From positions 7,219 to 71,218 of the forward strand of contig NVQL02000054.1 of assembly GCA_002400495.2 (NCBI GenBank): a DNA stretch of 64,000 bases, written 5' to 3'. The translations under genes were made by a program, and so were the position numbers. Below, piece after piece: positions 1 to 27,318 of this stretch. Every line of letters starts with the position of its first letter. Positions within the stretch are counted from its first letter, which is position 1. This stretch comes from Alphaproteobacteria bacterium (GTDB lineage: Bacteria; Pseudomonadota; Alphaproteobacteria; Rhizobiales; OSC116). The notes beneath the pieces are model-generated. The model was given only the letters and a program-made list of their open reading frames with translations, searched no databases and was not told the DNA's origin.

Positions 1-1790
1 GCCAAATCGATACCATCACCACCATATAATTTGTCATTGCCAGCTCCACCAACTAAAGTATCATTGCCAAGACCACCATATAAAGTATCATTGCCAGCTT
101 CACCCCATAAAGTGTCATTGTCCAAACCACCATCTAAAGTATCATCGCCAAGACCACCAGATATTTGATCATAGCCAGCATTACCATATAGAAAATCATC
201 GCCATTATAACCAAATAAAATATTGTTATTGTCATCACCTGTTATAGTGTCACCACGTGCAGAGCCTATTATTTGCTCTATATTATGCAATATATCCCCA
301 ATAGCATAACCACCACTGCCAGCGCGACCATCTAAATACACTGTCACTCCTGCATAACTAAGGCGATAGTCAACCGTATCAAAACCAAGACCACCATCTA
401 TAACATTGACTCTGCCATTGGCAAATATGGTGTCATCATGTGCAGAGCCTATTACATTATCTATAAAATGCAAAGTATCCCCTGCAGCATGACCACCACT
501 GCCAACGGCGCCATTTAAAGTCACTGTCACTCCTGCATCACTATCGCTATAGTCAACCGTATTAGTACCCTCATCACTACCATCTAATCTGTCAGCCCCA
601 GCTCCACCATTCAAAATATCATCACCAGCTCCACCATATAATTTGTCAGCCCCAGCTCCACCATTCAAAATATCATCACCAGCTCCACCTTCTAAAACAT
701 CATCACCAGCTCCACCAAATAAATCATCACCGCCATCATTACCCCATATATGATTGGCATTGGAATCACCAACTATTCTGTCAACATATGCAGAGCCTTT
801 TACATTCTCTATTTTAAACAAAGTATCCCCTTGAGCATCACCACCAAAGCCAGCGGTAACACCTTCATCTAAAACGACGTTCACTGGTGAATCACTATCG
901 CTATAGTCAGCCACATCGATATCAGCTCCACCATCTAATATGTCAGCCCCAGCTCCACCAACTAAAGTGTCATTGTGATCACCACCATATAACTCATCAT
1001 TACCATCACCACCATCTAATCTGTCTTCCCCAGTTCCACCATTTAAAGTATCATCACCAGCATTACCCCATATATAATTGTCATTGGTATCACCTGTTAT
1101 GATGTCATCATGTTCAGAGCCTTTTACATTCTCTATAGAAAACAAAGTATCCCCTTGAGCATCACCACCACTGCCAGTGCCAGTGCCATCTCCAACATCT
1201 AAAACCACTTCCACTCCTGAAAGCACTCCCACTCCTGAAAGCACTCCCACTTCCACTATTTCACCATTATTGCTATAGTCAGCCGTATCATTACCAGCAC
1301 CACCATCTAATATGTCAGCCCCAACTCCACCAAATAAACTATCATCGCCAGTTCCACCATATAATTCGTCAGCCCCAGCGCCACCAAATAAAGTATCAGC
1401 CCCAGCAAGACCTTCTAAAATATCATCGCCAGCAAGACCAAATAAAGTATCATTACCAGTACCACCATTTAAACTATCATCGCCAGCGGTTCCTGTTATA
1501 GGTGTAGGTGTAGGTGTAGGTGTAGGTGTAGGTGTAGGCGTAGGTGTAGGTGTAGGCGTAGGCGTAGGTGTAGGCGTAGGTGTAGGTGTAGGTGTAGGCG
1601 TAGGCGTAGGTGTAGGCGTAGGCGTAGGCGTAGGTGTCGGCGTAGGTGTCGGTGTAGGCGTCGTAGTTTCATCACAAGCGGCTAGGGTAAGCAATGAGGC
1701 GCTTGATAAGAATGTTAATTTGTTGGGTTTATTTAGAATCCGTTTATTGTTACGTTCTGAAAATTGACGTAGAGATATAGTTCTAGACAT
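1..1790 (-). CDS. RTX/hemolysin-type Ca-binding repeat lipoprotein, array paralog 1 (C-terminal part lies left of the window)
   Basis: Absent from the ORF track because there is no stop in the window. Reverse complement from the ATG at 1790-1788 reads [43 protein letters not shown]-(TP)n, followed by GGxGxD nonapeptide repeats. The 5' ~110 nt are almost identical to the starts of the three other paralogs. GGAG lies 8 nt upstream of the ATG. Confidence 0.8.
1501..1662 (-). repeat. hexanucleotide microsatellite, about 27 units of GGYGTM on the + strand, encoding the (Thr-Pro)n stalk of paralog 1
   Basis: Uninterrupted ggtgta/ggcgta/ggtgtc units from 1501 to 1662. The reverse complement reads ACN CCN = Thr-Pro, directly after the lipobox Cys codon. 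Confidence 0.9.
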
Positions 1791-1866
1791 ATTTAATACT
1801 CCATAAAAAAGCGTTGCATTTTTTAATAAGAAAATTGGATCATATAGAAATTCAACTAATAAGACG

Positions 1867-1906
1867 CATATATGGAACTATAAATCAACTATAAATTCCA
1901 TTTAAG
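1867..1906. promoter_or_regulatory. inverted repeat CATATATGGAA-N18-TTCCATTTAAG (candidate operator), copy A
   Basis: 9 of 11 arm positions are complementary. It sits between the RTX start (1790) and the HTH relic ATG (1935), at the same place in all four spacers. Confidence 0.4.
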
Positions 1907-1934
1907 CTACTTAATTTGTGATTAAGTTTTAAAT

Positions 1935-2112
1935 ATGGAATTTATGAATTTCGAAAAAGGCTAAAAAAATCAATTAAAACAGCAGTTGGAAACAAAAAGC
2001 TATCAAATGCCCCCTTAGCCACGCTAAACAACGATATAAGAGGCATCTCTGAACCAACTCTGGCAATGTTTCAATCAATCGGCTTGCCTATGGTAATCTG
2101 GCCAATATATAA
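1935..2112 (+). pseudogene. decayed XRE/Cro-type HTH gene, copy A
   Basis: ATG GAA TTT ATG AAT TTC GAA AAA GGC TAA gives a stop after 9 codons. Relative to copies B and D there are internal deletions, including loss of the AKIIDIANAC segment. Confidence 0.55.
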
Positions 2113-2220
2113 AGCCGCGATAGACAAGCAAAATCAATTGCCGCCAAAATTGAAAGCTGGGCGCAGATATAGAGCAAATTTTAAGCTGACTTTAAGCCGG
2201 GTGATTAAACACAAATAAAA

Positions 2221-2244
2221 ATGCCCAACCGATTGGCTGGGCAT
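2221..2244. terminator. hairpin terminator downstream of paralog 2 (possibly bidirectional)
   Basis: atgcccaacc-gatt-ggctgggcat forms a 10-bp stem with one mismatch. It is followed by TTTTTATTT on the minus strand and TTTTGTT on the plus strand, and lies 33 nt past the stop at 2277. Confidence 0.6.
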
Positions 2245-2276
2245 TTTGTTATCTATTGATTTAAAAACTTTGTGAA

Positions 2277-3845
2277 TTACAGGCCGTCATAATTATAGCC
2301 CGAATCACTACCTAACCAATTATGAAAATCATCTTCACTGCTAAAAGAAGTTCCAATAAATTCGCGATAAAGATCTTTCACATCATAAGTTTCCATAATA
2401 ACGCTATCATCTTCCGAACGCCATATAATTTGCTCGATTGAAGTCACATAATTTACACTAGTGCCGCCATCATGAAAGCTTTGAATAGAAAACATATTTT
2501 CTGCTAGCACGTTAAAAAGAAGATCATTACCCCTAACAGTCACTGTATCAAAACCATCGCCACCAGCTATGTTGTTTGAATCAGCTTCACCCCAAAATTT
2601 ATCATTACCGTCACCACCATCCATAGTGTCATTACCAGCTTGACCATATAATTCGTCATTGCCATCACCACCATTTAAAGTATCATCGCCATCACCACCA
2701 TATAAAGTATCATCGCCATCTAGACCCTGTATGTAATTGTCATTGGCATCACCTTTTATAGTGTCAACATGCATAGAGCCTATTACATTCTCTATAGTAA
2801 GCAAAGTATCCCCTTCAGCATCACCACCACTGCCAGCGGTACCATCTAAATATACTTCCACTCCGTCACCACTATGGCTATAGTCAACCGTATCAATACC
2901 CTCACCACCATCTAATATGTCAGCCCCAAGTCCACCATCTAAAACATCATCGCCATCTAGACCCTGTATATAATTCCTATTGGCATCACCTGTTATAATG
3001 TCATCATGCATAGAGCCTATTACATTCTCTATAGTAAGCAAAGTATCCCCTTCAGCATCACCACCAGTGCCAGCGGTACCATCTAAATACACTTCCACTC
3101 CGTCACCACTATGGCTATAGTCAGCCGTATCGGTACCATCACCACCACGTAATTCGTCAGCCCCAGCTCCACCATCCAAAATATTGTCATTGGCATCACC
3201 TGTTAGAATGTCATTATATTTAGAGCCTTTTACATTCTCTATAGAAATCAAAATATCCCCTTCAGCATCACCACCAGTGCCAGCGGTACCATCTAAATAC
3301 ACCTTCACTCCGTCACCACTATGGCTATAGTCAGCCGTATCGGCACCACCACCACCACGTAATTCGTCAGCCCCAGCTCCACCATCTAAAATATTGTTAT
3401 TGAAATCACCTATTAGAATGTCATTATATCTAGAGCCTATTACATTCTCTATAGAAAACAATCTATCCCCTTCAGCATGACCACCTTTGCCAGCAGTAAG
3501 ACCTTCATCTAAAACCACCGTCACTCCTGCATTACTATCGCTATAGTCAGCCACATCGGTACCCTCATCACCAGTTAAAACATCATCGCCAGCAAGACCT
3601 TCTAAAACATCATCACCAGCAAGACCATTTAAAACATCATCGCCATCACCACCCACCAGCCAATCATCTCCACTGGTTGCTCTTGTATTAATTGTCGGCG
3701 TCGGCGTCGGCGTAGTTGCTGTTCCACCACAAGCGGCTAGGGTAAGCAATGAGGCGCTCGATAATAATGTTAATTTGTTGGGTTTGTTTAGAATCCGTTT
3801 ATTGTTACGTTCTGAAAATTGACGTAGAGATATAGTTCTAGACAT
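2277..3845 (-). CDS. RTX/hemolysin-type Ca-binding repeat lipoprotein, array paralog 2 (522 aa)
   Basis: ORF 2277..3899 trimmed to the conserved ATG at 3845 ([10 protein letters not shown]..., GGAG upstream). Lipobox LTLAAC, TPTPTPT stalk, five ~78-aa blocks with GGxGxD repeats, and tail ...DFHNWLGSDSGYNYDGL. Confidence 0.85.
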   Translation of the reverse strand: MSRTISLRQFSERNNKRILNKPNKLTLLSSASLLTLAACGGTATTPTPTPTINTRATSGDDWLVGGDGDDVLNGLAGDDVLEGLAGDDVLTGDEGTDVADYSDSNAGVTVVLDEGLTAGKGGHAEGDRLFSIENVIGSRYNDILIGDFNNNILDGGAGADELRGGGGADTADYSHSGDGVKVYLDGTAGTGGDAEGDILISIENVKGSKYNDILTGDANDNILDGGAGADELRGGDGTDTADYSHSGDGVEVYLDGTAGTGGDAEGDTLLTIENVIGSMHDDIITGDANRNYIQGLDGDDVLDGGLGADILDGGEGIDTVDYSHSGDGVEVYLDGTAGSGGDAEGDTLLTIENVIGSMHVDTIKGDANDNYIQGLDGDDTLYGGDGDDTLNGGDGNDELYGQAGNDTMDGGDGNDKFWGEADSNNIAGGDGFDTVTVRGNDLLFNVLAENMFSIQSFHDGGTSVNYVTSIEQIIWRSEDDSVIMETYDVKDLYREFIGTSFSSEDDFHNWLGSDSGYNYDGL

Positions 3846-3923
3846 ATTTAATACTCCATAAAAAAGCGTTGCATTTTTTTGATGAGAAAATCGGATCATA
3901 TAAAAATGCTGATAATAAAGTTA

Positions 3924-3963
3924 CATAAACGGAACTTTTAATCAAATATAAATTCCATTTATG
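3924..3963. promoter_or_regulatory. inverted repeat CATAAACGGAA-N18-TTCCATTTATG (candidate operator), copy B
   Basis: 10 of 11 arm positions are complementary. The position is equivalent to the other spacers. Confidence 0.4.
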
Positions 3964-3989
3964 CTATTTATAATACGATTAAGTTTAAT

Positions 3990-4166
3990 ATAGAATTAAC
4001 AGAACTTCGAAAAAGACTAAAAAAATCAATTAAAACAGCAGCTGGGAACAAAAAACTTTCAAAGCAATCAAATGCCCCCTTAGCCACGTTAAACAACTAT
4101 ATAAGAGGCGTATCTGAACCAAGTTTGGCAAAAATTATTGATATTGCTAATGCTTGCAATGTTTAA
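3990..4166 (+). pseudogene. decayed XRE/Cro-type HTH gene, copy B (start codon ATG->ATA, premature TAA)
   Basis: The frame reads (ATA)ELTELRKRLKKSIKTAAGNKKLSKQSNAPLATLNNYIRGVSEPSLAKIIDIANACNV*. The HTH core is intact, but the start codon is lost and TAA replaces the Ser codon that precedes IDWLAYGEG in copy D. Confidence 0.6.
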
Positions 4167-4332
4167 ATCAATCGGCTTGCCTATGCTAATCTGGCCAATA
4201 TATAAAGCCGCGATAAACAAGCATTTTAGCAGCAAAATCAACAACCGCCAAAATTGAAAGCCTAACGCAGATATAGAGTAAATTTTAAGCTGACTTTAAG
4301 CCGGGAGGGCGGGTGATTAAACACAAATAAAA

Positions 4333-4356
4333 ATGCCCAACCAATTGGCTGGGCAT
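4333..4356. terminator. hairpin terminator downstream of paralog 3
   Basis: atgcccaaccaattggctgggcat, followed by a T-run on both strands. Same element as 2221..2244. Confidence 0.6.
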
Positions 4357-4388
4357 TTTGTTATCTTGTGATTTAAAAGCTTTGTGAA

Positions 4389-7300
4389 TTACAGGCCTTC
4401 ATAATCATAGCCCGTATCAGTACCTAACCAAGCCCGAAAATCAGCAACACTATCAAATTCATCCGATACATTAGAATGCGCTGAATCATTATAAAGATAT
4501 TTTATATCATAAGTATGACCATCAAATCTAATTAGCTCGGTTGAAACTAATTGATTTACACTAACAGTAGAGCCATTTTGATAGATTGTAAGATCAATTT
4601 TACGATGTTCATCTTCATTTATCTCAAAATAAAAATGATCACCCTCAATATTCACTGTATCACGACCACCGTTACCTTTTAAAATGTTATCGCCATTACC
4701 ACCATCTAAAGTATCATTGCCAGTGCCACCAAATAAAGAATCATCACCATCGCCACCATTTAAAGTATCATTACCAGTTCCACCATATAATTTGTCATTG
4801 CCCTTACCACCATTTAAAGTGTCATTATCATCTTTACCCCATAAATAATCAATGCCATCACCACCATTTAAAGTATCATTGCCAGCTCCACCATCTAATG
4901 CGTCATTACCAGCTTCACCATATAAAGTATCATCGCCAGCTCTACCATATAAATGGTCATAACCAGCTCCACCATATAAATGATTGGCATTGTCATTACC
5001 TCTTAAATAGTCACCATGTATAGAGCCTCTTATATCCTCTATAGAAACCAAAATATCCCCTTGAGCATCACCATAATAGTTACCGTATCCATCTAAATTC
5101 ACATCCACAAATGCATCACTATAGCTATAGTCAACCATATCGATACCATAACCACCATCTATTGTGTCAGCCCCAGCTCCACCATATAATTTGTCATCCC
5201 CAGCTCCACCATATAATATGTCAGCCCCAGCTCCACCATTTAATGTGTCACCCCCAACACCACCATATAAAGTATCATCGCCAGCTCTACCATATAAAGA
5301 ATCATTACCAGCACCACCCCATAAATAATTGGCATTGGAATCACCAAATAAGTAGTCATTATAATCAGAGCCTTTTATATTCTCTATAGAAACCAAAATA
5401 TCCCCAAGAGCATCACCAGAATAGTTAGCTGATCCCGTTAAACTCACATACACTAATTCATTACTATTGCTATAGTCAGCCGTATCGATACCATACCCAC
5501 CATCTAATGTGTCATCCCCAGCTCCACCATATAATGTGTCATCCCCAGCTCCACCATTTAAAATATCATCGCCAGCATTACCCCATATATAATTGTCATT
5601 GGCATCACCTGTTATAATGTCAACATGTGCAGAGCCATTTACATTCTCTATAGAAAGAAAAACATCCCCATCAGCATCACCACCACTGCCATTGGCACTG
5701 CCAGTGCCAGCATCCAAATCCACTGTCACTCCTTCATTACTATTGCGATAGTCAGCCGTATCGGTACCATCACCACCATATAATCTGTCAGCCCCAGCTC
5801 CACCATCTAAAATATTGTCTTTGGAATCACCTACTAGAAGGTCAACATATCCAGAGCCTCTTACATTCTCTATATAAAACAAAGTATCCCCATGAGCATC
5901 ACCACCACTGCCAGTGCCAGCAACTAAATCCACCGTCACTCCTGCATCACTACGGCTATAGTCAGCCGTATCGATACCATAACCACCATATAATGTGTCA
6001 GCCCCAGCTCCACCATCTAAAATATCATTACCACCACCACCACCTAATCTGTCATCCCCATCACCACCATATAATATATCATCGCCACCACTTGAGGCAT
6101 AATTACCATCATCACCACTTAACAGGTCATTACCAGCACCACCATATAAAGTGTCATCCCCAGCTCCACCATTTAAAGTATCATCGCCAGCTTCACCATA
6201 TAATCTGTCACTACCATCGCCACCATTTAGCTCATCGATACCATCACCGCCATTTAAAAGATTGGCATTGGAATCACCGGTTATAATGTCATCATGCATA
6301 GAGCCTATTACATTCTCTATCTCATACAATTCATCCTCAAGAGCATCACCACCACTGCCAGTGCCAGCATCTAAAAACACTGTCACTCCTGCATCACTAT
6401 CGCTATAGTCAACCACATCGATACCATCACCACCATAAAAAATATCCCCCCCATCTCCACCATTTAAAGTATCATCACCAGCTCCACCATTTAAAGTATC
6501 ATCGCCATCACCACCATTTAAAGTATCATCACCAGCTCCACCATTTAAAGTATCATCGCCAGCATTACCAAATAAAATATTATCATTGAGATCACCTGTT
6601 ATAGTGTCACCATATGCAGAGCCTAATACTTTCTCTATAGAAGATAAGCTATCACCACCAGCATCACCACCACTGCCAGTGGTACCATCTAAAAACACTG
6701 TCACTCCTGCATTACTATTGCGATAGTCAGCCGTATCGAGACCCTCACCACCATCTAATGCGTCACCCCCAGCACCACCATCTAAAACATCGTCGCCATC
6801 ATGACCATATAAATAATCATTACCAGCACCACCATCTAAAACATCGTCGCCATCATGACCATATAAAAGATCTAAGCCAGCATTACCAAATAAAATATTG
6901 TTATTGTCATCACCTGTTATAATGTCAGCATGTTCAGAGCCATTTACATTCTCTATAGAAGACAAACTATCTCCAGCAGCATCACCATAAGTGCCAGTGC
7001 CAGCAACTAAATTCACCGTCACTCCTAGATTACTATCGCTATAGTCAGCCGTATCGATACCAGCTCCACCATTTAAAGTATCATCGCCAGCTCCACCATT
7101 TAAAGTATCATTGCCAGTACCACCCCGTAATTCGTCAGCCCCAGCTCCACCATTTAAAGTATCAATGCCAGCTCCACCAATTAAAGTATCATTGCCAGCT
7201 CCAGCATTTAAAGTATCAATGCCATCACCACCATGTAAAATATCATGGCCAGCTCCACCATTTAAAGTATCATCGCCAGCATAGCTAAATAAAATATTGT

Positions 7301-8729
7301 CATTGAGATCACCTGTTAAAGTGTCAGCATGTCCAGAGCCTAATACTTTCTCTATAGAAGACAAACTATCCCCATCAGCATCACCACCACTGCCAGTGCC
7401 AGAACTTAAATCCACTGTCACTCCTGCATCACTATCGCTATAGTCAGCCGTGTCGGTACCAAGACCGCCATTTAAAGTGTCAGCCCCAGCTCCACCATTT
7501 AAAGTATCATTGCCAGTACCACCCCGTAATTCGTCAGCCCCAGCTCCACCATTTAAAGTATCATCGCCAGCATTACCCCATATAACATTGTTATTGTCAT
7601 CACCTGTTATAGTGTCAGCATGTTCAGAGCCTTTTACATTCTCTATAGAAGACAAACTATCCCCATCAGCATCACCATCACTACCAATGCCAGTATATAA
7701 ATCCACTGTCACTCCTGCATCACTATTGTGATAGTCAGCCGTATCGATACCCTCACCACCATTTAGCTCATCATCCCCAGCTCCACCATCTAAAATATCA
7801 TTACCACCACCACCATATAATCTGTCATCCCCATCACCACCATATAAAATATCGTCGCCATGATAATAGGCCCCATAATCATCACCATGTAACTCGTCAT
7901 TACCAGCTCCACCAGCTAAAGTATCATCGCCACGATAACCCCATATAACATTGTCATTGTCATCACCTGTTATATAGTCAGCAAATCTAGAGCCTATTAC
8001 ATTCTCTATAGAAATCAAAATATCCCCATCAGCATGACCACCACTGACAACGGCAGAACCTTCATCTAAAACCACCGTCACTCCTGCATCACTACGGCGA
8101 TAGTCAACCGTATCACTACCATCACCACCATCTAATATGTCAGCCCCAGCTCCACCAGCTAAAGTATCATCGCCAGCATTACCCCATACATGATGGGCTA
8201 CGTTAGGATATCTATAATCATCACCAGCATATATAAAATCATTATGTTCAGAGCCTATGAAATTCTCTATAGAATACAAACTATCCCTATAAGCATCACC
8301 ACCAGTGCCTATGATCGCGATGGCGCCTTCACCTGAATCGTAATTAAAAAACAATGTCACTCCTACATCATTATTGCTATAGTCAACCGTATCGATACCA
8401 GCACCACCATTTAGCTCATCAGCCCCAGCTCCACCAACTAAAACATCATCACCATCATAACCATATAAACGATCATTGCCATCACCACCCACTAAATAAT
8501 CATCCCCATCATAACCATTTAAACGATCATTGCCATCACCACCCACTAAATAATCATCCCCATCAGTACCCTCAATAAGAGCAGCTTTCGCAATAGATGT
8601 CGCGGCTCCACTATAAGCGGCTACGGTAAGCAATGAGGCGCTCGATAATAATGTTAATTTGTTGGGTTTGTTTAGAATCCGTTTATTGTTACGTTCTGCA
8701 AGTTGACGTAGAGATGTAGTTTTAAACAT
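4389..8729 (-). CDS. RTX/hemolysin-type Ca-binding repeat protein, array paralog 3 (1446 aa; lipobox Cys replaced by Tyr, no TP stalk)
   Basis: Full ORF. N-terminus [51 protein letters not shown], more than 15 RTX blocks, and tail ...DFRAWLGTDTGYDYEGL. Confidence 0.85.
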   Translation of the reverse strand: MFKTTSLRQLAERNNKRILNKPNKLTLLSSASLLTVAAYSGAATSIAKAALIEGTDGDDYLVGGDGNDRLNGYDGDDYLVGGDGNDRLYGYDGDDVLVGGAGADELNGGAGIDTVDYSNNDVGVTLFFNYDSGEGAIAIIGTGGDAYRDSLYSIENFIGSEHNDFIYAGDDYRYPNVAHHVWGNAGDDTLAGGAGADILDGGDGSDTVDYRRSDAGVTVVLDEGSAVVSGGHADGDILISIENVIGSRFADYITGDDNDNVIWGYRGDDTLAGGAGNDELHGDDYGAYYHGDDILYGGDGDDRLYGGGGNDILDGGAGDDELNGGEGIDTADYHNSDAGVTVDLYTGIGSDGDADGDSLSSIENVKGSEHADTITGDDNNNVIWGNAGDDTLNGGAGADELRGGTGNDTLNGGAGADTLNGGLGTDTADYSDSDAGVTVDLSSGTGSGGDADGDSLSSIEKVLGSGHADTLTGDLNDNILFSYAGDDTLNGGAGHDILHGGDGIDTLNAGAGNDTLIGGAGIDTLNGGAGADELRGGTGNDTLNGGAGDDTLNGGAGIDTADYSDSNLGVTVNLVAGTGTYGDAAGDSLSSIENVNGSEHADIITGDDNNNILFGNAGLDLLYGHDGDDVLDGGAGNDYLYGHDGDDVLDGGAGGDALDGGEGLDTADYRNSNAGVTVFLDGTTGSGGDAGGDSLSSIEKVLGSAYGDTITGDLNDNILFGNAGDDTLNGGAGDDTLNGGDGDDTLNGGAGDDTLNGGDGGDIFYGGDGIDVVDYSDSDAGVTVFLDAGTGSGGDALEDELYEIENVIGSMHDDIITGDSNANLLNGGDGIDELNGGDGSDRLYGEAGDDTLNGGAGDDTLYGGAGNDLLSGDDGNYASSGGDDILYGGDGDDRLGGGGGNDILDGGAGADTLYGGYGIDTADYSRSDAGVTVDLVAGTGSGGDAHGDTLFYIENVRGSGYVDLLVGDSKDNILDGGAGADRLYGGDGTDTADYRNSNEGVTVDLDAGTGSANGSGGDADGDVFLSIENVNGSAHVDIITGDANDNYIWGNAGDDILNGGAGDDTLYGGAGDDTLDGGYGIDTADYSNSNELVYVSLTGSANYSGDALGDILVSIENIKGSDYNDYLFGDSNANYLWGGAGNDSLYGRAGDDTLYGGVGGDTLNGGAGADILYGGAGDDKLYGGAGADTIDGGYGIDMVDYSYSDAFVDVNLDGYGNYYGDAQGDILVSIEDIRGSIHGDYLRGNDNANHLYGGAGYDHLYGRAGDDTLYGEAGNDALDGGAGNDTLNGGDGIDYLWGKDDNDTLNGGKGNDKLYGGTGNDTLNGGDGDDSLFGGTGNDTLDGGNGDNILKGNGGRDTVNIEGDHFYFEINEDEHRKIDLTIYQNGSTVSVNQLVSTELIRFDGHTYDIKYLYNDSAHSNVSDEFDSVADFRAWLGTDTGYDYEGL

Positions 8730-8789
8730 ATTTATGACTCCATAAAAAAAAGTGTTGCATTAAAAAAAAGTGTTACATTATTCTTAACT

Positions 8790-9070
8790 TCTAAATACCG
8801 TGCGCAATGAACATTATGGGTATGCCGTGTTTCAGCGCCATACGCACCCAACATGTTTTGGTAATTTTTTCGCCTAAACAATCACTCATTCGCATAGCAA
8901 TCTCGTCTCGGTTTCATTCACATTCATTAAGCGTTAAGGCAATCGCCTTGGCATATTTAGCACCAATATTTATCGCCCTAACATCCTGCTCTTTAAATTA
9001 TTTGGTTATTTTTACTGGCTGCCAAATCCAACAAACTTTTAGTAAAAATATCTTTTTTATCCTTAGCCAT
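8790..9070 (-). pseudogene. multiply disrupted small gene relic (possibly phage-type regulatory protein)
   Basis: The minus strand reads MAKDKKDIFTKSLLDLAASKNNQII* / EQDVRAINIGAKYAKAIALTLNECE* / NRDEIAMRMSDCLGEKITK / MLGAYGAETRHTHNVHCARYLE across three frames. The family assignment rests on memory only. Confidence 0.3.
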
Positions 9071-9138
9071 ACGCAAAACACTCCATCTGACCGAATCAAT
9101 TAAATTAAAGTTATTCGCAATATCTCTTTAATGTTACG

Positions 9139-9179
9139 CTTATACGGAACTTTTAGTCAAACATTAAATTCCACATAAG
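9139..9179. promoter_or_regulatory. inverted repeat CTTATACGGAA-N19-TTCCACATAAG (candidate operator), copy C
   Basis: 9 of 11 arm positions are complementary. The position is equivalent to the other spacers. Confidence 0.35.
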
Positions 9180-9207
9180 CTATTTAATTTGCATTTAAGT
9201 TCTAAAT

Positions 9208-9412
9208 ATGGAATTAACAAAACTTCGAAAAAAGGCTAAAAACACCAGCTGAAAACAAAAAACTTTCAAAGCTATCAAATGCCCCCTTAGCCACGTTAAA
9301 CAACTATACAAGAGGCGCCTCCGAACCAAGTTTGGCGAAAGTCATTAATATTGCAAACACTTGCAATCTTTCAATCGATCGGCCTGCCCATGCTAATCTG
9401 GCCAATATATAA
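9208..9412 (+). pseudogene. decayed XRE/Cro-type HTH gene, copy C
   Basis: ATG GAA TTA ACA AAA CTT CGA AAA AAG GCT AAA AAC ACC AGC TGA. A deletion and frameshift give a stop after 14 codons. The downstream HTH-coding sequence is still recognisable. Confidence 0.55.
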
Positions 9413-9539
9413 AGCCGCGATAGACAAGCATTTTAGCAGCAAAATCACCTGCCGCCAAAATTGAAAGCTGAGCGCAGATATAGAGCAAATTTTAAGCAGA
9501 CTTTAAGCCGGGAAGCCAGGTGATTAAACACAAATAAAA

Positions 9540-9563
9540 ATACCCAACCGATTGGCTGGGCAT
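9540..9563. terminator. weakened copy of the spacer hairpin downstream of paralog 4
   Basis: atacccaacc-gatt-ggctgggcat has two mismatches in the stem. The T-runs are retained. Confidence 0.4.
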
Positions 9564-9595
9564 TTTGTTATTTATTGATTTAAAAACTTTGTGAA

Positions 9596-11392
9596 TTACA
9601 GGCCTTCATAATCATAGCCATCATCCTTACCGAGCCAAGTCAGAAAATCAGCTTCACTGCCAAATTCAATCCTTGTATCACCAATGTCATCTTTATAAAG
9701 ATCTTTTATATACTTAATGCCACTAGCATTCAGAGAACTAATCCGATATAGCTCGATTGAAGTTAAATGTTCTATAACCTTATCTCCATCAGTATATTCG
9801 AGTGTAAGTATAATTTCATTATTCATTTCATCTATATCAAACTTAATAGAATCAGAATCATATCCAGTACCATTATCTTCATCAAGTCCTTTTCTACCCA
9901 AAATAGCCACTGTATCTTCCTCAGCGCCACCATCTAGATAGTTTTCACCAGCCTTATCATTCGACAGTTCATCATTACCAGCTTCACCATATAAATAATC
10001 ATCACCTGCATCACCATGTAAAAAGTCACCCCCAGCTCCACCCCATACAGTATCACTACCACCTCGACCACTTATATTATCACTTCCACCTCCACCCCGT
10101 ATTTCATTGGCATTATCATCACCCCATATGAAGTCACCATATGCAGAGCCTATTATATTCTCTATAGAAACATAAGTATCCCCTTCAGCATAACCATTAG
10201 CGCCGCCAGCGGCATCTTTGCTACCATCACTGTACACAAATTCAGCTAAAAACGCGCGCACTCCGTCATCACTATTGCTATAGTCAACCGTATCATTACC
10301 ATCACCACCATCTAATATGTCAGCCCCAAGTCCACCATCAAATTTGTCATCGCCATCTCCACCAAATAATTCATTTTCATTTTCATCACCTGTTATAATG
10401 TCATCATATGCAGAGCCTATTACATTCTCTATCTCATACAATTCATCCCCAGCAGCATCACCAAAACTGCCAGCAGTACCATCTAAATACACTTTCACTC
10501 CGTCACTACTATTGCTATAGTCAGCCGTATCGGTACCCTCACCACCATGTAATTCGTCAGCCCCAAGTCCACCAACTAAAACATTGTCATTGGCATCACC
10601 ATATAATTTGTCAGCATATCTAGAGCCTATTATATTCTCTACAGTAAGCAAAACATCCCCTTCAGCATGACCACCAATGCCAGGGGTCTTAGTACCTCCA
10701 TTTATAACCACTATCACTCTTTCATCACTATCGCTATAGTCAACCGTATCGGTACCACCTTCACCATATAATTTGTCAGCCCCAGCTCCACCAGCCAAAA
10801 TATCATTGCCATCATTACCCCAAATAATATTGTCCTTGGCATCACCTGTTAGAATGTCATTACGCAGAGAGCCTACTACATTCTCTATATCATGCAAAGT
10901 ATCCCCTTCAGCATCACCACCACTGCCAGTGCCAGCATCTAAATCCACCGTCACTCCTGCATTACTAGTGCTATAGTCAGCCTCATCAATACCATCACCA
11001 CCATATAATATGTCAGCCCCAATTCCACCAATCAAAGTATCAGCCCCAATTCCACCAATCAAAGTATCATCGCCAATTCCACCAATCAAAGTATCATTGC
11101 CAGCAAGTCCATCTAAAGTATCATCGCCAGCAAGACCATCTAAAACATCATCGCCATCACTACCCTCCAGCCAATCATCTCCATTGGTTGCTTCTGCATC
11201 AGGTGTCCCTGTAGGCGTCGGAGTTGGCGTAGGCGTCGGAGTTGGCGTCGGCGTTGGCGTAGTTGCTTTTGTACCACAAGCGGCTAGGGTAAGTAATGAG
11301 GCGCTAGATAATAGTGTTAATTTGTTGGGTTTGTTTAGAATCCGTTTATTGTTACGTTCTGAAAATTGACGTAAAGATGTAGTTCTAGACAT
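9596..11392 (-). CDS. RTX/hemolysin-type Ca-binding repeat lipoprotein, array paralog 4 (598 aa)
   Basis: Full [48 protein letters not shown](PT)n, RTX blocks, and tail ...[17 protein letters not shown]. Confidence 0.85.
11211..11264 (-). repeat. hexanucleotide repeat, 9 units GTNGGN, encoding the TP stalk of paralog 4
   Basis: gtaggc gtcgga gttggc gtaggc gtcgga gttggc gtcggc gttggc gtagtt. It contains an 18-bp super-unit repeated twice. Confidence 0.85.
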
Positions 11393-11472
11393 ATTTAATA
11401 CTCCATAAAAAAAAGTGTTGCATTTTTTTGATGAGAAAATTGAATCTTATAAAAATGCTTATAATAAAATTA

Positions 11473-11512
11473 CATAAATGGAACTTTTAATCAAATTAAA
11501 ATTCCATTTATG
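11473..11512. promoter_or_regulatory. perfect inverted repeat CATAAATGGAA-N18-TTCCATTTATG (candidate operator), copy D
   Basis: 11 of 11 arm positions are complementary. It lies 81 nt upstream of the paralog 4 ATG and 27 nt upstream of the HTH relic ATG. Confidence 0.45.
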
Positions 11513-11538
11513 CTATTTATTTCACAATTAGGTTTAAT

Positions 11539-11746
11539 ATGGAGTTAACAGAACTTCAAAAAAAGGCTAAAAGCAGCAGGTGGAAACAAAAAGGTTTCTG
11601 AGCTATCAAATATCCCCTTAGGCACGTTAAACAACGATATAAGAGGCGTCTCTGAACCAACTTTAGCGAAAATTATTGATATTGTTAATATTTGCAATGT
11701 TTCAATCGATTGGCTTGCCTATGGTGAAGGCTTCGCAAATAGATGA
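11539..11746 (+). pseudogene. frameshifted XRE/Cro-type HTH gene, copy D (best preserved C-terminal part)
   Basis: ATG..MELTELQKKAKSSRWKQKGF* in frame 1. A second frame reads AAGGNKKVSELSNIPLGTLNNDIRGVSEPTLAKIIDIVNICNVSIDWLAYGEGFANR*. The length of 208 nt is not a multiple of 3. Confidence 0.6.
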
Positions 11747-11880
11747 CCTATATCAGATCACAATCAAGATCTTTTAGCAGCAAAGCATTAACCACCATCT
11801 CCTGACATTCATTAGGCTAAGCTCTGACAAATGTTTTACGGCTATGACTTAATCTAAAATGAGCTAGCTTAATGCCTAGG

Positions 11881-12750
11881 TCACATAATCCTAGTTAATT
11901 CCTGGAGCAACTGATCGGATTCAGGTCGTGAGGGTTGGTGGCGATAACGCAGCGCAAACACTTGGCGTTCAATCCCAACCCCTTCAATAGGCATCGAGAC
12001 AAGGCCTGCTTCTTCCGGAATGGCTGTTTCAGGTAAAATCACACACCCCGCACCTTTTCGTGCAAGTTCTAATAACCAATCAACGTGGTTTGATCGATAG
12101 GCTGCGTAAAGAGTATGACCATGCTCGGCGATGGTTTTATGCAGAATGTCACGCATCTCGCAATTAGGTCGGTCAAGCATATCAGTGGCTGCTAACATCT
12201 CCATAGTTACGCTTTTTTGATGGCTCAATGGGTGTTTTATTGAAACCACAGCGCGATAACCTTCTTGGTATAACGGGTTAACTCGATAAATCTCGGGTGA
12301 AACCTCGCTAGCTGTAATCACCATATCAAAGCGACCTTCCCGAAGCACTGTAAGTAAGGTCTGTTGGTCCTCTACGATCAGTTCAATATCAGCCCGCGGC
12401 TGTAAAGTTCGAAAACGCTCTATGGCTTCCGATATTTTGGCTTGTCCGATGGTTTTACCCACCCCAAGAGTAATCGGAACGCGTTCAAGCCTTACATGAC
12501 GTATAGCCTTTGCCTTTGCTTCGCGTGTTTGCTGTTGCACATTGAGTAAATGTGGAAGCATAAGCGTGCCCAATGGGGTTAAGCGACAACCAGCCCGATC
12601 TCGCAAAAAAAGCACACCACCTAATTCATCCTCTAATTTCTTGATTGAAGATGTGAGAGAAGGTTGTGAAACGTTTGTTGCACGCGCAGCGTGTGTAAAA
12701 TTTTTATGCTCGCAAACGGCTAAAAAATAACGAATTTGGTTCATCTGCAT
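11881..12750 (-). CDS. LysR-family transcriptional regulator
   Basis: N-terminal wHTH MNQIRYFLAVCEHKNFTHAARATNVSQPSLTSSIKKLEDELGGVLFLR. 289 aa, divergent from 12918..13643. Confidence 0.9.
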   Translation of the reverse strand: MQMNQIRYFLAVCEHKNFTHAARATNVSQPSLTSSIKKLEDELGGVLFLRDRAGCRLTPLGTLMLPHLLNVQQQTREAKAKAIRHVRLERVPITLGVGKTIGQAKISEAIERFRTLQPRADIELIVEDQQTLLTVLREGRFDMVITASEVSPEIYRVNPLYQEGYRAVVSIKHPLSHQKSVTMEMLAATDMLDRPNCEMRDILHKTIAEHGHTLYAAYRSNHVDWLLELARKGAGCVILPETAIPEEAGLVSMPIEGVGIERQVFALRYRHQPSRPESDQLLQELTRIM

Positions 12751-12917
12751 TGATAAATCTCTTTCCCCAATTAAAGTAATAAAAAAAATATTAGTACTTT
12801 TAGTTCCATAGTCAATAGCTATCGAAAAATAGAAAACAAGAATTGGTATTTACAATTCGCTTGGTAGATAAAGGACGTGCTGAAGAATTAACAAACCTAA
12901 CCAAATAGGAGTATAAA

Positions 12918-13643
12918 ATGACAAATATATTAATCAAAACTCTCAGTATTTTAGCCCTTATGACAGCAACATCGACCTATGCACAGGAGAAAATTATGGT
13001 AGATCAAAAAGCAAGTTACATAGAAATAATTGCGGCAGAAAATCAAGGGAGCAAGCTAGCTCAATTTCTGACCAACGCAGCACCTTTGGTCAAGCAAACA
13101 GAGCCTGAAACAAATTTATGGTTTGCTCTACAAGCGTCTGATGACAAACATGCTATTTTTGATATTTTTCTCGACGAAGACGCCCGTAACACACATTATT
13201 CCGGTGCAGTTGCCAACGCTTTAAAAGAAAATGCGAGTAAGTTGGTCAAAGGTGGTTGGTTAAATGGAGTTGTTGACAATATCAACAATTCAACCGTGTT
13301 GTCGGCAAACCAACCTTCCGACCTGTATAGCGCAACTACGGCTACATATATCAAACTTACAGCAGCGCAAGGCCAAAGTGAAGAACTGGCGGCATTGCTA
13401 ACAGCTGCAGGCCAAATCGTCTCCGAGACAGAACCTAAGACACTGTTCTGGGTGGCTTTGCAACTGGATAGCCAAAACTTTGCAATCTATGATATTTTCG
13501 CAGATGAAACGGGTCGCACGGCGCATTTCGCGGGGCAGGTCGCTGGCCTTCTGAAAGAAAAAGCCGCAACCCTTGTCCAAGGTGGATGGGATGATGGAGT
13601 GGTCGCAAATATCAGTAATTACAAGATTCTCGCAATCAATTGA
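12918..13643 (+). CDS. secreted protein with two tandem ABM (antibiotic-biosynthesis-monooxygenase-like) domains
   Basis: Signal peptide MTNILIKTLSILALMTATSTYAQE. Two ~100-aa halves align with each other (TEPETNLWFALQ..IFDIFLDEDARNTHYSG / TEPKTLFWVALQ..IYDIFADETGRTAHFAG). Confidence 0.6.
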   Translation: MTNILIKTLSILALMTATSTYAQEKIMVDQKASYIEIIAAENQGSKLAQFLTNAAPLVKQTEPETNLWFALQASDDKHAIFDIFLDEDARNTHYSGAVANALKENASKLVKGGWLNGVVDNINNSTVLSANQPSDLYSATTATYIKLTAAQGQSEELAALLTAAGQIVSETEPKTLFWVALQLDSQNFAIYDIFADETGRTAHFAGQVAGLLKEKAATLVQGGWDDGVVANISNYKILAIN

Positions 13644-13720
13644 AACAAGGATAACTATTTTGCCCGCGATCCATAGTTGCGGGCAAATAAAAATATGGTT
13701 AATTCAATAAATGGGGACGT

Positions 13721-13915
13721 ATGCCTGATACCAATCAAAAAAAAATTGCAAATTCAATTTTTAATCAAAAATCTTTTTCTAAAGACATTCAACCAACAAT
13801 AACAATAAATTGCGAAAACCCGATAATATTTAACGGGGATATGACTTTTTCAGATTCTGACAACAGCCAAACATTAGAACAAGTCATTCAAAACCATTTA
13901 AGTGGTAAAAACTAA
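13721..13915 (+). CDS. hypothetical small protein (64 aa)
   Basis: ORF only, with no recognisable motif. Confidence 0.2.
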   Translation: MPDTNQKKIANSIFNQKSFSKDIQPTITINCENPIIFNGDMTFSDSDNSQTLEQVIQNHLSGKN

Positions 13916-14062
13916 TTATACTAACCTTTAAATACCATTAAACCGCTATTTAAAGGCCTTTTAGTCTAAATTGTGCAAAATGTGATTATCCTCAAATACA
14001 ACCAAAACCCACCCAGAAAATTCAAAATAATTTTCCGTATTCACATTTTCTCCAAAGCCAAA

Positions 14063-14100
14063 CGCCACAAAGAAAAGGCCCGCAACCTAAGTTGCGAGCC
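14063..14100 (-). terminator. rho-independent terminator of 14130..16205
   Basis: The minus strand reads GGCTCGCAAC-TTAG-GTTGCGGGCC followed by TTTTCTTT, 30 nt past the stop. Confidence 0.7.
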
Positions 14101-14129
14101 TCATAACATTCAATAACTAAATCTTTGCC

Positions 14130-16205
14130 TTACACGAATACAAAGTCCGCACCAGTTAAAGAGCCAGTGAGCGTGGTCATTGTACCAATTATTATTTCAC
14201 TACCGTTAGAGAAATCGCCGTCGGCGTCAAAAAGAAGCCTATTATTAGTGGTGTCATAAGCCAGAGCACCACCACCATATTGGCCACTTAAATCAGCCGC
14301 TTGAATATTCACCAGCGTATCTACCAAAACATACTGTACACCAGCACCAGCACCAAGAGCACCAATAGTGGCCGCATCACCAACCGTGGCTGCACCAGCC
14401 GCCGCCGCATAGCTAGCAGCTGTAAAGTTAAACACATCATCCGCCGTAACAAACTCGACAACATTCATAGCGTTTGCCACTAACACAGTGTTAGCATAAT
14501 TAAATGTATCAGCACCAGCGCCACCAGTTACCGTATCGATACCTGCACCACCAGTAATTGTATCGGCACCACTACCACCAGTAATGGTATCAGCACCACC
14601 CGTTGCAATAACAGTTAGCGCGCCCGTAAAGGCAGAGGCATCAACAATGACACCGCTAGCAGTAGCCAGATTTGCAAGTATCAGATCAGCATTACCCGTC
14701 ACAACAATTTTAGCACCAGAGGTTAAAGTCAGTGTCGAGATTTCATTTTTTTCAGCAGTTGATGCACCTAAATCATATGATCCAATATTGATTGTCTCAA
14801 TGGTTGAAACATCAATATCATTCTGAGTTATATCTGCTGCCACCACGACTAAGTTTAGATTAAGAACATCAGTAAGACCATCCACTAGAGGAACAAAAGT
14901 AATCCCATTAACTGTATTAGAAGCCGTTAGAGTGAAAGTATCTCCAGTAACCAAATCGTAGGTGCGGGCACCACCAGCAGTGTTATCAGCAGTGAAGGTA
15001 AACTTACTAATATCTGTAAATGAATTAGAAGAAAAGCCAGTAATCAATGTGTCAACCTGAAGAACTTCAAAGTTTTTGGCTCTATTAACATTAGTAATAA
15101 TGTTCGCATTCTTCAAATCGCCGCCAGCTATCACAAGCGTATCTTCATCAGCACCACCATCAATAGTGGTTACTTTTGTACCAGCAACAACCAGGGCTAC
15201 GGTCAAATCCATGGCCGAAATATCAATTGTATCATTCCCAGCACCGCCAGTGATTGCAATGGTGGCCGTCGGAACCACCACTTCAAATTCGTCCTTACCA
15301 GACCCACCTTTTACCGATGTTGTGGCGGCATCTGTTTTAAGTTTAACTCCACCACTACTATCTTCCGCATCTACTGTAGCAATGGTCGCGCTTAATGTAC
15401 CAAGTGTCACTTCGCCAGCGCCTTTAACAGTCACATCAGCTTCAGCCGCTGTTGCGCCAGAAAGGTTGATTTGGGTTGTCATGGCGGCGTCAATATTGAT
15501 TGTTGAAGCTTTAGAAAAATCGTTATTTGTATCAATAACCGCAGCACCAGTAATTGTAAGGTTGATAGTTTCACTATCATCAGCATCAATGCCAGCGCCT
15601 GCTGAGGCTTCGCCTATGGTAATATTCGCAACATCTGTAGAGCCTGTAGCACCACTATAGTCAATTGTAAGCACATTCGCGTCAAGATCATCAATACTAA
15701 TTGTTGTGGTTGCAGCAATACCACTTATGGTCGTGTTATTGGTCAATTTGTCCAATTTCACACTTGTATAACCATCACTATCGCCATCGATAGAAACGAT
15801 ATTACCACCGTTACGCACATCAAGAATTTCAATATTTTTTATGGTTGCAATGCCTGTATCAAAAGCCGCCACATTAGTCGCGACGATAAGAGTGTCAGTA
15901 CCAGAACCACCATTAAGAACTTCACCAGCAGTGAACGTTTCAATACCACCAGGAAGATTGGCAATAAACCTATCATCACCAGAATCGCCCGATAAAATAT
16001 CCTTGCCGATTGTAAGCTCAAAGGTTTGGCCTTCTGGTGTCGGAGTTGGTGTCGGAGTTGGTGTCGGTGTCGGAGTGGTCGCCGCGGGCAGACAAGCTGT
16101 TAGCAAAGCAGCCATACTAGACATAGCAAGAATTTGAGAATTTTTGGTGATTAGTTGTCTTGTCTTCTTTTTGGCGGTGGTACCAAATACAACATGTTTA
16201 TTCAT
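14130..16205 (-). CDS. large surface lipoprotein with TP stalk, Thr/Ala/Ile/Asp-rich repetitive body and C-terminal RTX repeats
   Basis: ORF trimmed to MNKHVVFGTTAKKKTRQLITKNSQILAMSSMAALLTAC, with GAGG 8 nt upstream. Lipobox LLTAC, then ATT(PT)7 EG, and C-terminal GGADTITGGSGADTITGGAGIDTVTGGAGADTF. Confidence 0.75.
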   Translation of the reverse strand: MNKHVVFGTTAKKKTRQLITKNSQILAMSSMAALLTACLPAATTPTPTPTPTPTPTPEGQTFELTIGKDILSGDSGDDRFIANLPGGIETFTAGEVLNGGSGTDTLIVATNVAAFDTGIATIKNIEILDVRNGGNIVSIDGDSDGYTSVKLDKLTNNTTISGIAATTTISIDDLDANVLTIDYSGATGSTDVANITIGEASAGAGIDADDSETINLTITGAAVIDTNNDFSKASTINIDAAMTTQINLSGATAAEADVTVKGAGEVTLGTLSATIATVDAEDSSGGVKLKTDAATTSVKGGSGKDEFEVVVPTATIAITGGAGNDTIDISAMDLTVALVVAGTKVTTIDGGADEDTLVIAGGDLKNANIITNVNRAKNFEVLQVDTLITGFSSNSFTDISKFTFTADNTAGGARTYDLVTGDTFTLTASNTVNGITFVPLVDGLTDVLNLNLVVVAADITQNDIDVSTIETINIGSYDLGASTAEKNEISTLTLTSGAKIVVTGNADLILANLATASGVIVDASAFTGALTVIATGGADTITGGSGADTITGGAGIDTVTGGAGADTFNYANTVLVANAMNVVEFVTADDVFNFTAASYAAAAGAATVGDAATIGALGAGAGVQYVLVDTLVNIQAADLSGQYGGGALAYDTTNNRLLFDADGDFSNGSEIIIGTMTTLTGSLTGADFVFV
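16036..16077 (-). repeat. hexanucleotide repeat, 7 units GGNGTN, encoding the TP stalk of 14130..16205
   Basis: ggtgtc ggagtt ggtgtc ggagtt ggtgtc ggtgtc ggagtg. Confidence 0.85.
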
Positions 16206-16378
16206 TGATTTTACCTCATAACAAATTAAATCGATCACTAGCGCCCAATTTACAGGCCTAAAGTTAACTAAAGTATAAAATTAACCAATAAATTTGTTAC
16301 GCCCCAATCCTCCTATACCCAGGCATAGAAGTCACGAATACTTGCCGAATTTAAATAACTTATATTACTAACTGGCAG

Positions 16379-17011
16379 TTAATTTTCAGAGATAACCTGC
16401 GCCACCTCAGCAGCAAAAATTTTATGCTGCGATGCTGCCCAATGCGCCCCATCCACCATGCTAGACGTAATGTGCGCCCCTGCATTCATAAAATATATAT
16501 CAGCCTTCTCGGCCATTTCTTCATAATGCGCAGGCATTTCGTGCGATTTAGCTTCACCTCCACCCAATATAGCCATCGGGTTGTCACAATCTTCAATAAT
16601 CGGCGGCGGGCAGATCAGCAATATTTTAACCGGTTCGCCCGCAGCACCAATATCTTCGCGCTTAATGTCATCCACCAACACCATAGCGCCAAGCGCAATC
16701 TCACGTGCCGTTTTGTTAAAGCGGGTTTTTAAATCATTCGTGCCCAACATAATCACCACCCAATCAAGCGGCCGATGGCTGTGCAAAATCGGCAATAAAG
16801 GCATGCGGCCATTGCGCCACGTCCCTTCAATCGGGTCGTCAGTCACCGTGGTGCGCCCGCCCAATCCCTCTTCAATAATACGATATTCATCACCCAAATT
16901 GGCTTGCAAAACACTGGTCCACCTCACGCCCAACGGGTAGCGCCCATCAGCATGCCCCTCAACCGAAGCCCCCCACGTATTGCTATCGCCATAACATAAT
17001 ATATTCTGCAT
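16379..17011 (-). CDS. SGNH/GDSL-family hydrolase (esterase)
   Basis: Block I: MQNILCYGDSNTWG. GTND block. DGAHW (DxxH) near the C-terminus. 210 aa. Confidence 0.85.
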   Translation of the reverse strand: MQNILCYGDSNTWGASVEGHADGRYPLGVRWTSVLQANLGDEYRIIEEGLGGRTTVTDDPIEGTWRNGRMPLLPILHSHRPLDWVVIMLGTNDLKTRFNKTAREIALGAMVLVDDIKREDIGAAGEPVKILLICPPPIIEDCDNPMAILGGGEAKSHEMPAHYEEMAEKADIYFMNAGAHITSSMVDGAHWAASQHKIFAAEVAQVISEN

Positions 17012-20388: not shown

Positions 20389-20460
20389 GCATAATCTCCT
20401 TTTTAAATAATCATAACTGAATCTGATTCAGCTCTTGACTCTTGCTTTCGATTCAAGTTA

Positions 20461-20475: not shown

Positions 20476-20498
20476 AAAGTCAAATAAAACGGAACAAC

Positions 20499-22512: not shown

Positions 22513-22521
22513 GGGATTTTC

Positions 22522-27314: not shown

Positions 27315-27318
27315 AACA

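Follow-up and report, generated by a model that had tools for sequence, protein, structure and literature searches.

Candidate lipid-anchored RTX beta-roll proteins with Sec-type heads, encoded in a mosaic array behind a putative phage-derived flank block in marine Alphaproteobacteria

The left end of a 64,000-nucleotide stretch of alphaproteobacterial DNA (the window; contig NVQL02000054.1 of assembly GCA_002400495.2, positions 7,219 to 71,218 of the forward strand) carries four co-oriented minus-strand open reading frames (ORFs), together spanning 1..11392, which encode proteins with the tandem Gly/Asp-rich nonapeptides found in the RTX (repeats-in-toxin) family. We label these genes g1 to g4, and positions refer to the window unless another contig is named. 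g1 (<1..1790) supplies the N-terminal 596 codons of a 1115-residue protein, which is complete and has a normal C-terminal tail on L002, a public North Pond aquifer metagenome contig that is 100% identical to window positions 1..13845 and extends 7.2 kb past the left edge. The remaining three are g2 (2277..3845, 522 residues), g3 (4389..8729, 1446 residues) and g4 (9596..11392, 598 residues). An earlier note on the window had placed four RTX genes at these coordinates, and its assignment is confirmed by Pfam, in which HemolysinCabind (PF00353) matches all four products with E values of 1e-43 to 1e-168 and 8 to 34 matched stretches per protein. NCBIfam models match only partially, to the RTX parts of serralysins and hemolysins, and far under their cut-offs.

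The middles of the four proteins vary, as had been claimed, with at least 9, 4, 10 and 3 IEN.xGS blocks in g1, g2, g3 and g4, respectively (strict regular expression). The constant block length of 75-80 residues that went with this claim does not hold, the spacing between blocks being 61-152 residues. Within single genes, Tandem Repeats Finder detects 27-nt arrays as well as longer periods of 210-399 nt that are 75-90% identical, and gene length therefore varies through internal block duplication. The mature parts are highly acidic and glycine-rich (Asp plus Glu about 20%, Gly about 20%, net charge -88 to -245) and consist of stalk, repeats and tail only, with no enzymatic or toxin domain in any of the four. 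Plus-strand ORFs at 1312..1767, 5111..5389, 5993..6408, 7450..7731 and 11010..11369 carry PPxKVS or GVGVGV repeats; we rejected these as genes, since they are artefacts of reading the RTX and Thr-Pro repeats in antisense frames.

The N-terminal ends of the four genes are strikingly uniform. From about -30 to +117 the copies are near-identical, with a common GGAG 8 nt before the ATG, and the first 117 nt of coding sequence, which specify a 39-residue head, are 91.5-97.4% identical, in agreement with the near-identity of leader and first ~110 nt reported earlier. The heads of g1, g2 and g4 read MSRT[IT], 21 residues, Leu or Phe and 12 further residues (that of g1 runs from its 10 opening residues to a terminal LAAC), and combine an n-region of net charge +6 with a 12-residue h-region rich in Ser, Ala and Leu and the lipobox LAAC at positions 36-39. 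The pattern recognised by signal peptidase II (SPase II), [LVI][ASTVI][GAS]C after a hydrophobic stretch and a basic n-region, is present in these three proteins, in which Cys39 is the sole Cys of 522-1115 residues. Directly after this Cys stands a (Thr-Pro)n stalk of about 29 repeats in g1, 3 in g2 and about 9 in g4, the stalk DNA of g1 (1499-1658) being a 6-nt repeat in 26.7 copies; the residue at +2 is Asp in g1 and Gly in g2 and g4. The g3 head is otherwise conserved and reads MFKT..LLTVAAY, a single TGT>TAT change having replaced Cys39 by Tyr. g3 contains no Cys anywhere and has a possible SPase I site (AKA|A). The stalk is missing from g3 too, so that it follows the Cys in exactly the Cys-bearing copies. 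Since g3 is without Cys39, three of the four genes are lipoprotein candidates, and the earlier attribution of both lipobox and Thr-Pro stalk to all four fails for g3. The only family matches to the heads, all weak, are to lipoprotein-signal models (LptM). Genes for Lgt and LspA are absent from the 64-kb window.

The unusually long basic n-region and weakly hydrophobic h-region are typical of twin-arginine translocation (Tat) signals, and N-K-R-I-L-N-K in the heads might be taken for a degenerate twin-arginine motif. This motif departs from S/T-R-R-x-F-L-K, however: it has no RR pair, neither RR nor a K-R pair is conserved across the family, and the TAT_signal model does not match the heads even at E=10. 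Furthermore, Tat exports folded proteins, whereas RTX repeats are unstructured at cytoplasmic Ca2+ levels (PMC3034196). We therefore give export by Tat almost no credence.

At the other end, the C-termini of g1-g4 converge on [AD]F..WLG.D.GY[ND]Y[ED]GL. This motif closes a domain of about 95 residues that follows the RTX repeats and ends F..E.DF..WLG.D.GYNYEGL, a description that fits g1-g4 as well as the related genes of contig L001 (see below). Among g1-g4 the domain (about 75 codons) is only 35-44% identical in protein and 49-65% in DNA; the conserved tail postulated in the earlier note thus holds for the last ~60 nt and the terminal motif and does not extend to the domain as a whole. Neither Pfam nor NCBIfam nor the sequences of the PDB contain a match to it, and a profile search of the PDB gave noise only. 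An AlphaFold2 model of the last 125 residues of g2, built on an 18-sequence alignment (pLDDT 89, pTM 0.82), shows RTX turns running into further strands and then two helices, followed by a lower-confidence terminal GYNYDGL; a single-sequence model of full-length g2 was discarded (pLDDT 34). In a Foldseek search the tail model resembles beta-roll domains of type I secretion system (T1SS) substrates only, including the capped CyaA block V, with E values of 1e-3 or above, and shows no likeness to a known sorting or anchoring domain. The predicted structure therefore answers the earlier call for a model of the tail with a beta-roll-like cap, and we interpret the tail as such a cap joined to a small helical module, at whose end stands a conserved and probably exposed peptide.

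Relatives were sought with both ends of the proteins. A scan of species-representative genomes with the head found one related contig, L001, from the metagenome-assembled genome (MAG) 'Hyphomicrobiales bacterium NORP94', where three comparable genes are found together with intact repressor genes and a transposase, at 75-93% DNA identity to the window. In a word-indexed set of 5.8 billion proteins, the g4 tail and an alignment of 7 tails found nothing and an alignment of 17 tails found a single protein (P0002). An exhaustive hidden Markov model search of 1.84 billion representatives with the tail profile returned 19 proteins at E<=0.001, g2 itself and an L001 gene among them. P0004-P0018 match at E values of 7e-11 to 7e-4, with 13 invariant columns; in two of these proteins, P0008 and P0015, the match is confined to profile positions 1-39 and falls in several stretches inside the protein. 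The tail lies at the extreme C-terminus in 14 relatives, 12 of which have a readable N-terminus and are 331-1087 residues long, and the last 13 residues are near-invariant across a family otherwise 30-45% identical in the tail. A further relative, P0019 (672 residues), has the tail domain internally (residues 247-345) and a divergent second copy at its end, and the sequence past the internal copy resembles its own mature N-terminus; P0019 looks like a fusion of two tandem paralogs. As the domain can also be internal, it is not strictly a terminal signal.

Indeed, head and tail travel together. All 13 tail-bearing relatives with readable N-termini possess a long basic n-region (charge +4 to +7 across the family) and a hydrophobic stretch, that is, a Sec-type head. 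In 9 of the 13 a lipobox Cys, usually the sole Cys, lies at positions 27-39, and the other 4 read [VL]-A-S-[GN] without Cys. The prospect raised beforehand, that homologs might prove to be head-less T1SS substrates, is consequently not borne out among these 13. The named members are all 'hypothetical protein' entries from OCS116-cluster and Hyphomicrobiales MAGs. Three genomic contexts were inspected: one relative is a singleton among housekeeping genes, one adjoins Kps-type capsule genes, and one belongs to a tandem pair on contig L008 (4604-9371), in which P0012, Cys-less and with cadherin-like repeats, is followed by a paralog of the same head type with overlapping stop and start codons. 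Tandem duplication thus occurs elsewhere in the family. Another member lies on L004, a contig from the same sample as L002; L004 has no DNA in common with the window, and we therefore do not claim it as part of the same genome. JGI metagenome contigs lack both head and tail, and IMG/VR lacks the tail; on these grounds we rejected a phage-borne 'moron' origin of the whole family. Judged from these searches, the family is apparently small and restricted to OCS116-cluster/Hyphomicrobiales marine alphaproteobacteria. It counts 17 representatives besides g2 at E<=0.001 among the 1.84 billion, or 16 once the gene of the sister-MAG contig L001 is set aside as well.

Conservation at the DNA level is concentrated between the genes rather than in them. 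It begins in the last ~60 nt of the coding sequence (79-87% identity), continues through the terminator and the whole intergenic region (87-96% over the first 190 nt) and takes in the leader and the first 117 nt of the coding sequence that follows, so that the conserved block, at 80-97% identity overall, is mostly non-coding. Identity falls to 49-76% in the gene bodies, to which most of the tail domain belongs (57-72% in the post-head region and 67-76% in the repeat bodies). Synonymous divergence estimated by the Nei-Gojobori method follows the same pattern: dS amounts to 0-0.2 for the head and 0.09-0.23 for the final 20 codons, as against 0.25-1.25 in the tail domain, where dN is 0.66-0.86 and dN/dS exceeds 1 in some pairs, estimates that are noisy over 75 codons. 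In the heads of g1, g2 and g4, dN is about 0.01-0.02 at a dS of 0.07-0.2. The identities of the segments and the contrast in dS and dN between flanks and bodies indicate that the array units are mosaics. These comparisons support a young shared flank block of ~0.7 kb around bodies that would be old and/or fast-evolving, the tail domain itself belonging by the same estimates to the unhomogenised, old and/or fast-evolving part. Conservation is much higher at the ends than in the middles, which fits duplication and gene conversion, as the earlier note had proposed for both ends; the block is mainly intergenic DNA plus head, and the tail domain has to be taken out of that proposal.

Each gene is followed by a strong intrinsic terminator on the minus strand, located at 2218..2247 for g2 (a 13-bp stem, then a T run), 4330..4359 for g3 and 9537..9566 for g4. 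A scan of 1..16500 against Rfam found no families, which means that no known RNA element accounts for the conserved block between the genes. Just before the GGAG (about 1800-1830, 3855-3885, 8740-8770 and 11400-11430), poly-A and poly-T tracts vary in length, reading A5/A7/A2/A7 and T6/T6/T8/T8 for g1-g4.

The intergenic block contains recognisable phage sequence, of which the earlier note makes no mention. In every intergenic region the plus strand shows what is left, in decayed form, of the first ~70 codons of a Mu-like repressor gene (XRE/HTH_3). The remnants lie at 1946..2106 (residues ~5-70 of 138), 3990..4199 (residues 1-70, with no ATG and an in-frame stop), 9224..9406 and 11555..11728. 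On its right-hand side the repeated block ends near 11730, ahead of a LysR gene (11881..12750). The three internal intergenic regions have one common deletion junction in the repressor gene and hence descend from one rearranged ancestor unit, so that the block presumably spread by duplication or gene conversion. The region between g4 and g3 is ~380 nt longer than the other internal ones, the extra DNA being an inserted Mu-like early-region fragment (8812..9147) that corresponds to sequence just upstream of the transposase gene in L001 and L002. An annotated 98-residue ORF in this region (8807..9103, plus strand) is probably spurious.

An intact counterpart of these remnants lies next to the array. 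The earlier note had the array continuing past the left edge of the window; on L002 only g1 runs over this edge, and the array stops there and abuts a Mu-like element or its remnant. Beyond g1 lie an intact 138-residue repressor gene, Ner-like sequences and a 705-residue MuA-type transposase, which form the divergent repressor/Ner/transposase early region characteristic of Mu-like phages (L002 15645-21019). The repressor is of the XRE type (HTH_3, phrog_3037), the transposase has rve and Mu-transpos_C domains (phrog_310, E 1e-71), and the Ner-like gene has an HTH_35 domain (phrog_769). Farther along L002 there are a second partial repressor/Ner copy and, beyond the transposase, a head-less RTX fragment, and no MuB or structural genes occur before the contig ends; the element is probably a rearranged remnant.

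Furthermore, an operator-like palindrome, ATGGAAnTT-N12-AAnTTCCAT, occurs at exactly three sites in the 64 kb (0.01 expected), namely 1872..1901 (82-111 nt upstream of g1), 3929..3958 (upstream of g2) and 11478..11507 (upstream of g4), in each case 82-115 nt upstream of the gene; g3 has none upstream. The same palindrome precedes the intact repressor genes of L002 (16095-16124) and L001 (4489-4518) by 34-63 nt, and within the Mu-like element it precedes the Ner-like gene. As the palindrome is common to g1, g2, g4 and the element's own repressor, we infer that these three genes stand behind copies of the early promoter/operator of the element, and the one intact repressor, encoded beside g1, may regulate them. 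The head itself is not phage-derived, a possibility that we rejected because the stretch homologous to the Mu-like region ends some 28 nt upstream of the start codon.

Pseudogenised repressor fragments and Mu-like early-region pieces between the genes, the loss of Cys, stalk and palindrome from g3 and the head-less RTX fragment beyond the transposase might also be what remains of decaying RTX paralogs, scrambled by Mu-like recombination and unexpressed. We consider such non-functional debris very unlikely, since this highly repetitive DNA has retained four ORFs of 522-1446 codons without interruption, ribosome-binding site, start codon and terminators are conserved, dN in the heads is low relative to dS, and the tail motif is kept across the wider family in ordinary chromosomal contexts.

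Taken together, we regard it as reasonably probable that g1-g4 represent a family of Sec-exported RTX beta-roll proteins, with the Cys-bearing members lipid-anchored, and that the array is a mosaic behind a phage-derived flank block. According to this proposal, the unfolded chains of g1, g2 and g4 would be translocated by Sec via the 39-residue signal peptide ending LAAC, Lgt would diacylate the single Cys39 and LspA would cleave, and the mature proteins would then be suspended from a membrane by Thr-Pro stalks that differ in length. Once outside the cytoplasm, the strongly acidic beta-roll would bind Ca2+ and so fold, with the tail continuing and capping it. g3 and about a third of the relatives, having lost the Cys, would be exported without a lipid anchor. 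The bodies would change length through internal duplications of 210-400 nt, and the repressor next to g1 might control expression of g1, g2 and g4. All of these functional statements are predictions from MAG and metagenome sequence.

Several observations weigh against this interpretation. The Cys lies at position 39 here and at 27-39 in the relatives, beyond residues 15-35 within which the old PROSITE lipoprotein rule expects it, the n-region being unusually long. The h-region is only moderately hydrophobic (mean Kyte-Doolittle 1.7-1.8). Asp occupies +2 in g1 and several relatives, and in E. coli Asp at this position is an inner-membrane retention signal; Asp accompanies long stalks (g1 and genes 1 and 2 of L001) and Gly short ones, a correspondence seen in 5-6 cases. 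The C-terminal layout, with a beta-roll, ~95 non-repeat residues with helices, high acidity and a Cys-free mature part, is equally typical of T1SS substrates. T1SS genes 'mostly' lie beside those of their substrates, though not in every case (PMC3034196), and export without a T1SS is argued here on the 64-kb window and the inspected loci, as distinct from the whole genome, so that such genes could be distant. Finally, the argument for repressor control draws solely on sequence homology of the upstream regions.

RTX proteins are defined by beta-roll repeats together with T1SS export through an uncleaved C-terminal signal of ~60 residues (PMC3034196). g1-g4 could accordingly be ordinary T1SS substrates, the tail being that signal, the ABC (ATP-binding cassette) protein, membrane fusion protein (MFP) and TolC being encoded elsewhere, and the head being non-working or a mere retention or anchor element. 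Besides the layout of the C-terminus, the structural neighbours of the tail model, all of them T1SS substrates, speak for this alternative. Yet no set of ABC, MFP and outer-membrane protein (OMP) genes exists in the window, as the earlier note had observed for the surroundings of the array. The only ABC exporter of the window (35917..37659) is MsbA-like, stands alone with no HlyD neighbour and scores under all T1SS cut-offs, and no T1SS genes are found on L002, L003/L004, L007 and L008, which include the contexts of the three relatives. g1-g4 therefore depart from the RTX family in having no linked ABC/MFP(/OMP) genes at these loci, and they depart from it again in having, like the 13 relatives, a signal-peptide-like head where classical members are exported independently of Sec and have no N-terminal signal peptide. 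An irrelevant head would hardly be kept, with its lipobox Cys at a conserved position, by relatives that are only 30-45% identical in the tail. Moreover, an N-terminal Sec signal engages long before the C-terminus of a 500-1400-residue chain has been made, the tail matches no Pfam or NCBIfam family, and it is internal in P0019. On balance, we judge T1SS export unlikely, and we take the tail most probably for a cap in folding, a docking module or both, in preference to a classical T1SS signal.

The near-invariance of the 13 terminal residues is unusual for a mere fold cap. As a new C-terminal domain with an invariant terminal motif, the tail is a candidate sorting or docking signal. It is plausible, as an extension of Sec export with lipid anchoring, that a second step follows, in which a dedicated translocator (a TolC-dependent pump, a Slam-like protein or, as with pullulanase, a type II secretion system) reads WLGxDxGYNYEGL and takes the proteins across or onto the outer membrane, giving a variable, Ca2+-stiffened surface coat. 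The terminal residues are the least confident and probably flexible part of the tail model, the high dN of the bodies and the variation in stalk length and repeat number fit an exposed surface protein, and one relative adjoins Kps-type capsule export genes. On the other hand, no candidate translocator gene is linked at any inspected locus, Pfam, NCBIfam and the PDB yielded no known sorting motif of such a form, and Asp at +2 in g1 and several relatives argues for inner-membrane retention if the E. coli rule applies. We hold this two-step route to be improbable as matters stand.

Comparison with characterised systems brings out the unusual combination of parts. Classical RTX/T1SS substrates such as HlyA, CyaA, serralysins, family I.3 lipases and NodO are alike in the GGxGxD beta-roll (PF00353), the acidity and the non-repeat C-terminal segment; the proteins described here differ in their N-terminal Sec/lipoprotein-type signal, the absence of linked ABC/MFP/OMP genes, a C-terminal domain of no known family and the absence of an enzyme or toxin domain. 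RTX adhesins with an N-terminal retention module (LapA, MpIBP, SiiE) are cell-tethered, Ca2+-dependent beta-roll surface proteins of variable repeat number. They are T1SS substrates held by a folded N-terminal plug in a TolC-like channel and released by LapG, whereas a lipid attached to Cys+1 following export by Sec would serve as tether in the present proteins; no retention module and no LapG/LapD genes were seen at the array. The Vlp, Vsp and Vsa proteins of Mycoplasma are encoded in tandem lipoprotein arrays with a conserved 5' region and signal peptide and a repetitive, length-variable, fast-diverging body. They differ in their monoderm hosts, in having no RTX repeats and in their demonstrated phase variation (promoter poly-A tracts, site-specific inversion); no such switch is evident at the array, where there are only small A/T-tract length differences ahead of the ribosome-binding site.

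An RTX protein linked to the envelope through a lipoprotein is known from Neisseria meningitidis, where FrpC is joined to FrpD (PMC3034196; PMC5233953). FrpD-FrpC consists of two proteins, a T1SS-secreted RTX protein and a separate lipoprotein, whereas lipobox and RTX repeats are here in one polypeptide. Carbohydrases of Saccharophagus degradans, a marine Gram-negative bacterium, have a lipobox followed by a polyserine linker (PMC2386152) and so share the design of a lipobox and a low-complexity stalk by which a functional domain is kept at a distance from the membrane; they carry catalytic or carbohydrate-binding modules on polyserine instead of a beta-roll on (Thr-Pro)n. In the full-text literature, as far as its incomplete coverage allows, a search for RTX combined with lipobox or lipoprotein signal found no described RTX lipoprotein.

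On the accepted rationale, RTX repeats do not fold while in the cytoplasm, where Ca2+ is scarce, and act as a ratchet that draws the chain out through the T1SS duct. If the Sec/lipoprotein route is true, the beta-roll would be a portable Ca2+-switch fold that suits Sec as well, and the family would be an uncharacterised envelope component in an abundant uncultured marine clade (OCS116/Hyphomicrobiales). The array also offers a clean natural mosaic of young homogenised flanks and old or fast-evolving bodies, in which a phage early promoter/operator has apparently been reused before host surface-protein genes. The boldest version of this picture would make g1, g2 and g4 the first RTX beta-rolls to use the lipoprotein pathway and to form a lipid-anchored, Ca2+-stiffened, rapidly diversifying surface coat, with WLGxDxGYNYEGL as a new sorting or docking signal, Vsp/Vlp-like recombination cassettes whose homology arms would be the conserved head and intergenic block, and domesticated Mu-like repressor/operator wiring; in this full form we find it rather doubtful.

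Three further features of the window deserve mention. A separate protein of 691 residues (14130..16205, minus strand) lies outside the tail family and has a long basic n-region, the lipobox LLTAC (Cys38), a (TP)7 stalk, a different body with 4 RTX nonapeptides and the C-terminus ...GADFVFV, thus a second architecture with lipobox and RTX repeats at the same locus. This C-terminus is similar to the acidic-plus-hydrophobic ends of T1SS substrates of the protease/lipase type. At 20442..25752 on the plus strand, an imuA-imuB-dnaE2 (error-prone polymerase) cassette was recognised from translations only. A set of genes for DUF2271, a PepSY_TM-flavodoxin reductase and ApbE lies at 26847..30442 (plus strand), and a set of the same composition stands beside a relative (P0020) at 14.4-20.7 kb of L003/L004; the two sets have no DNA similarity and are therefore paralogous or from different organisms.

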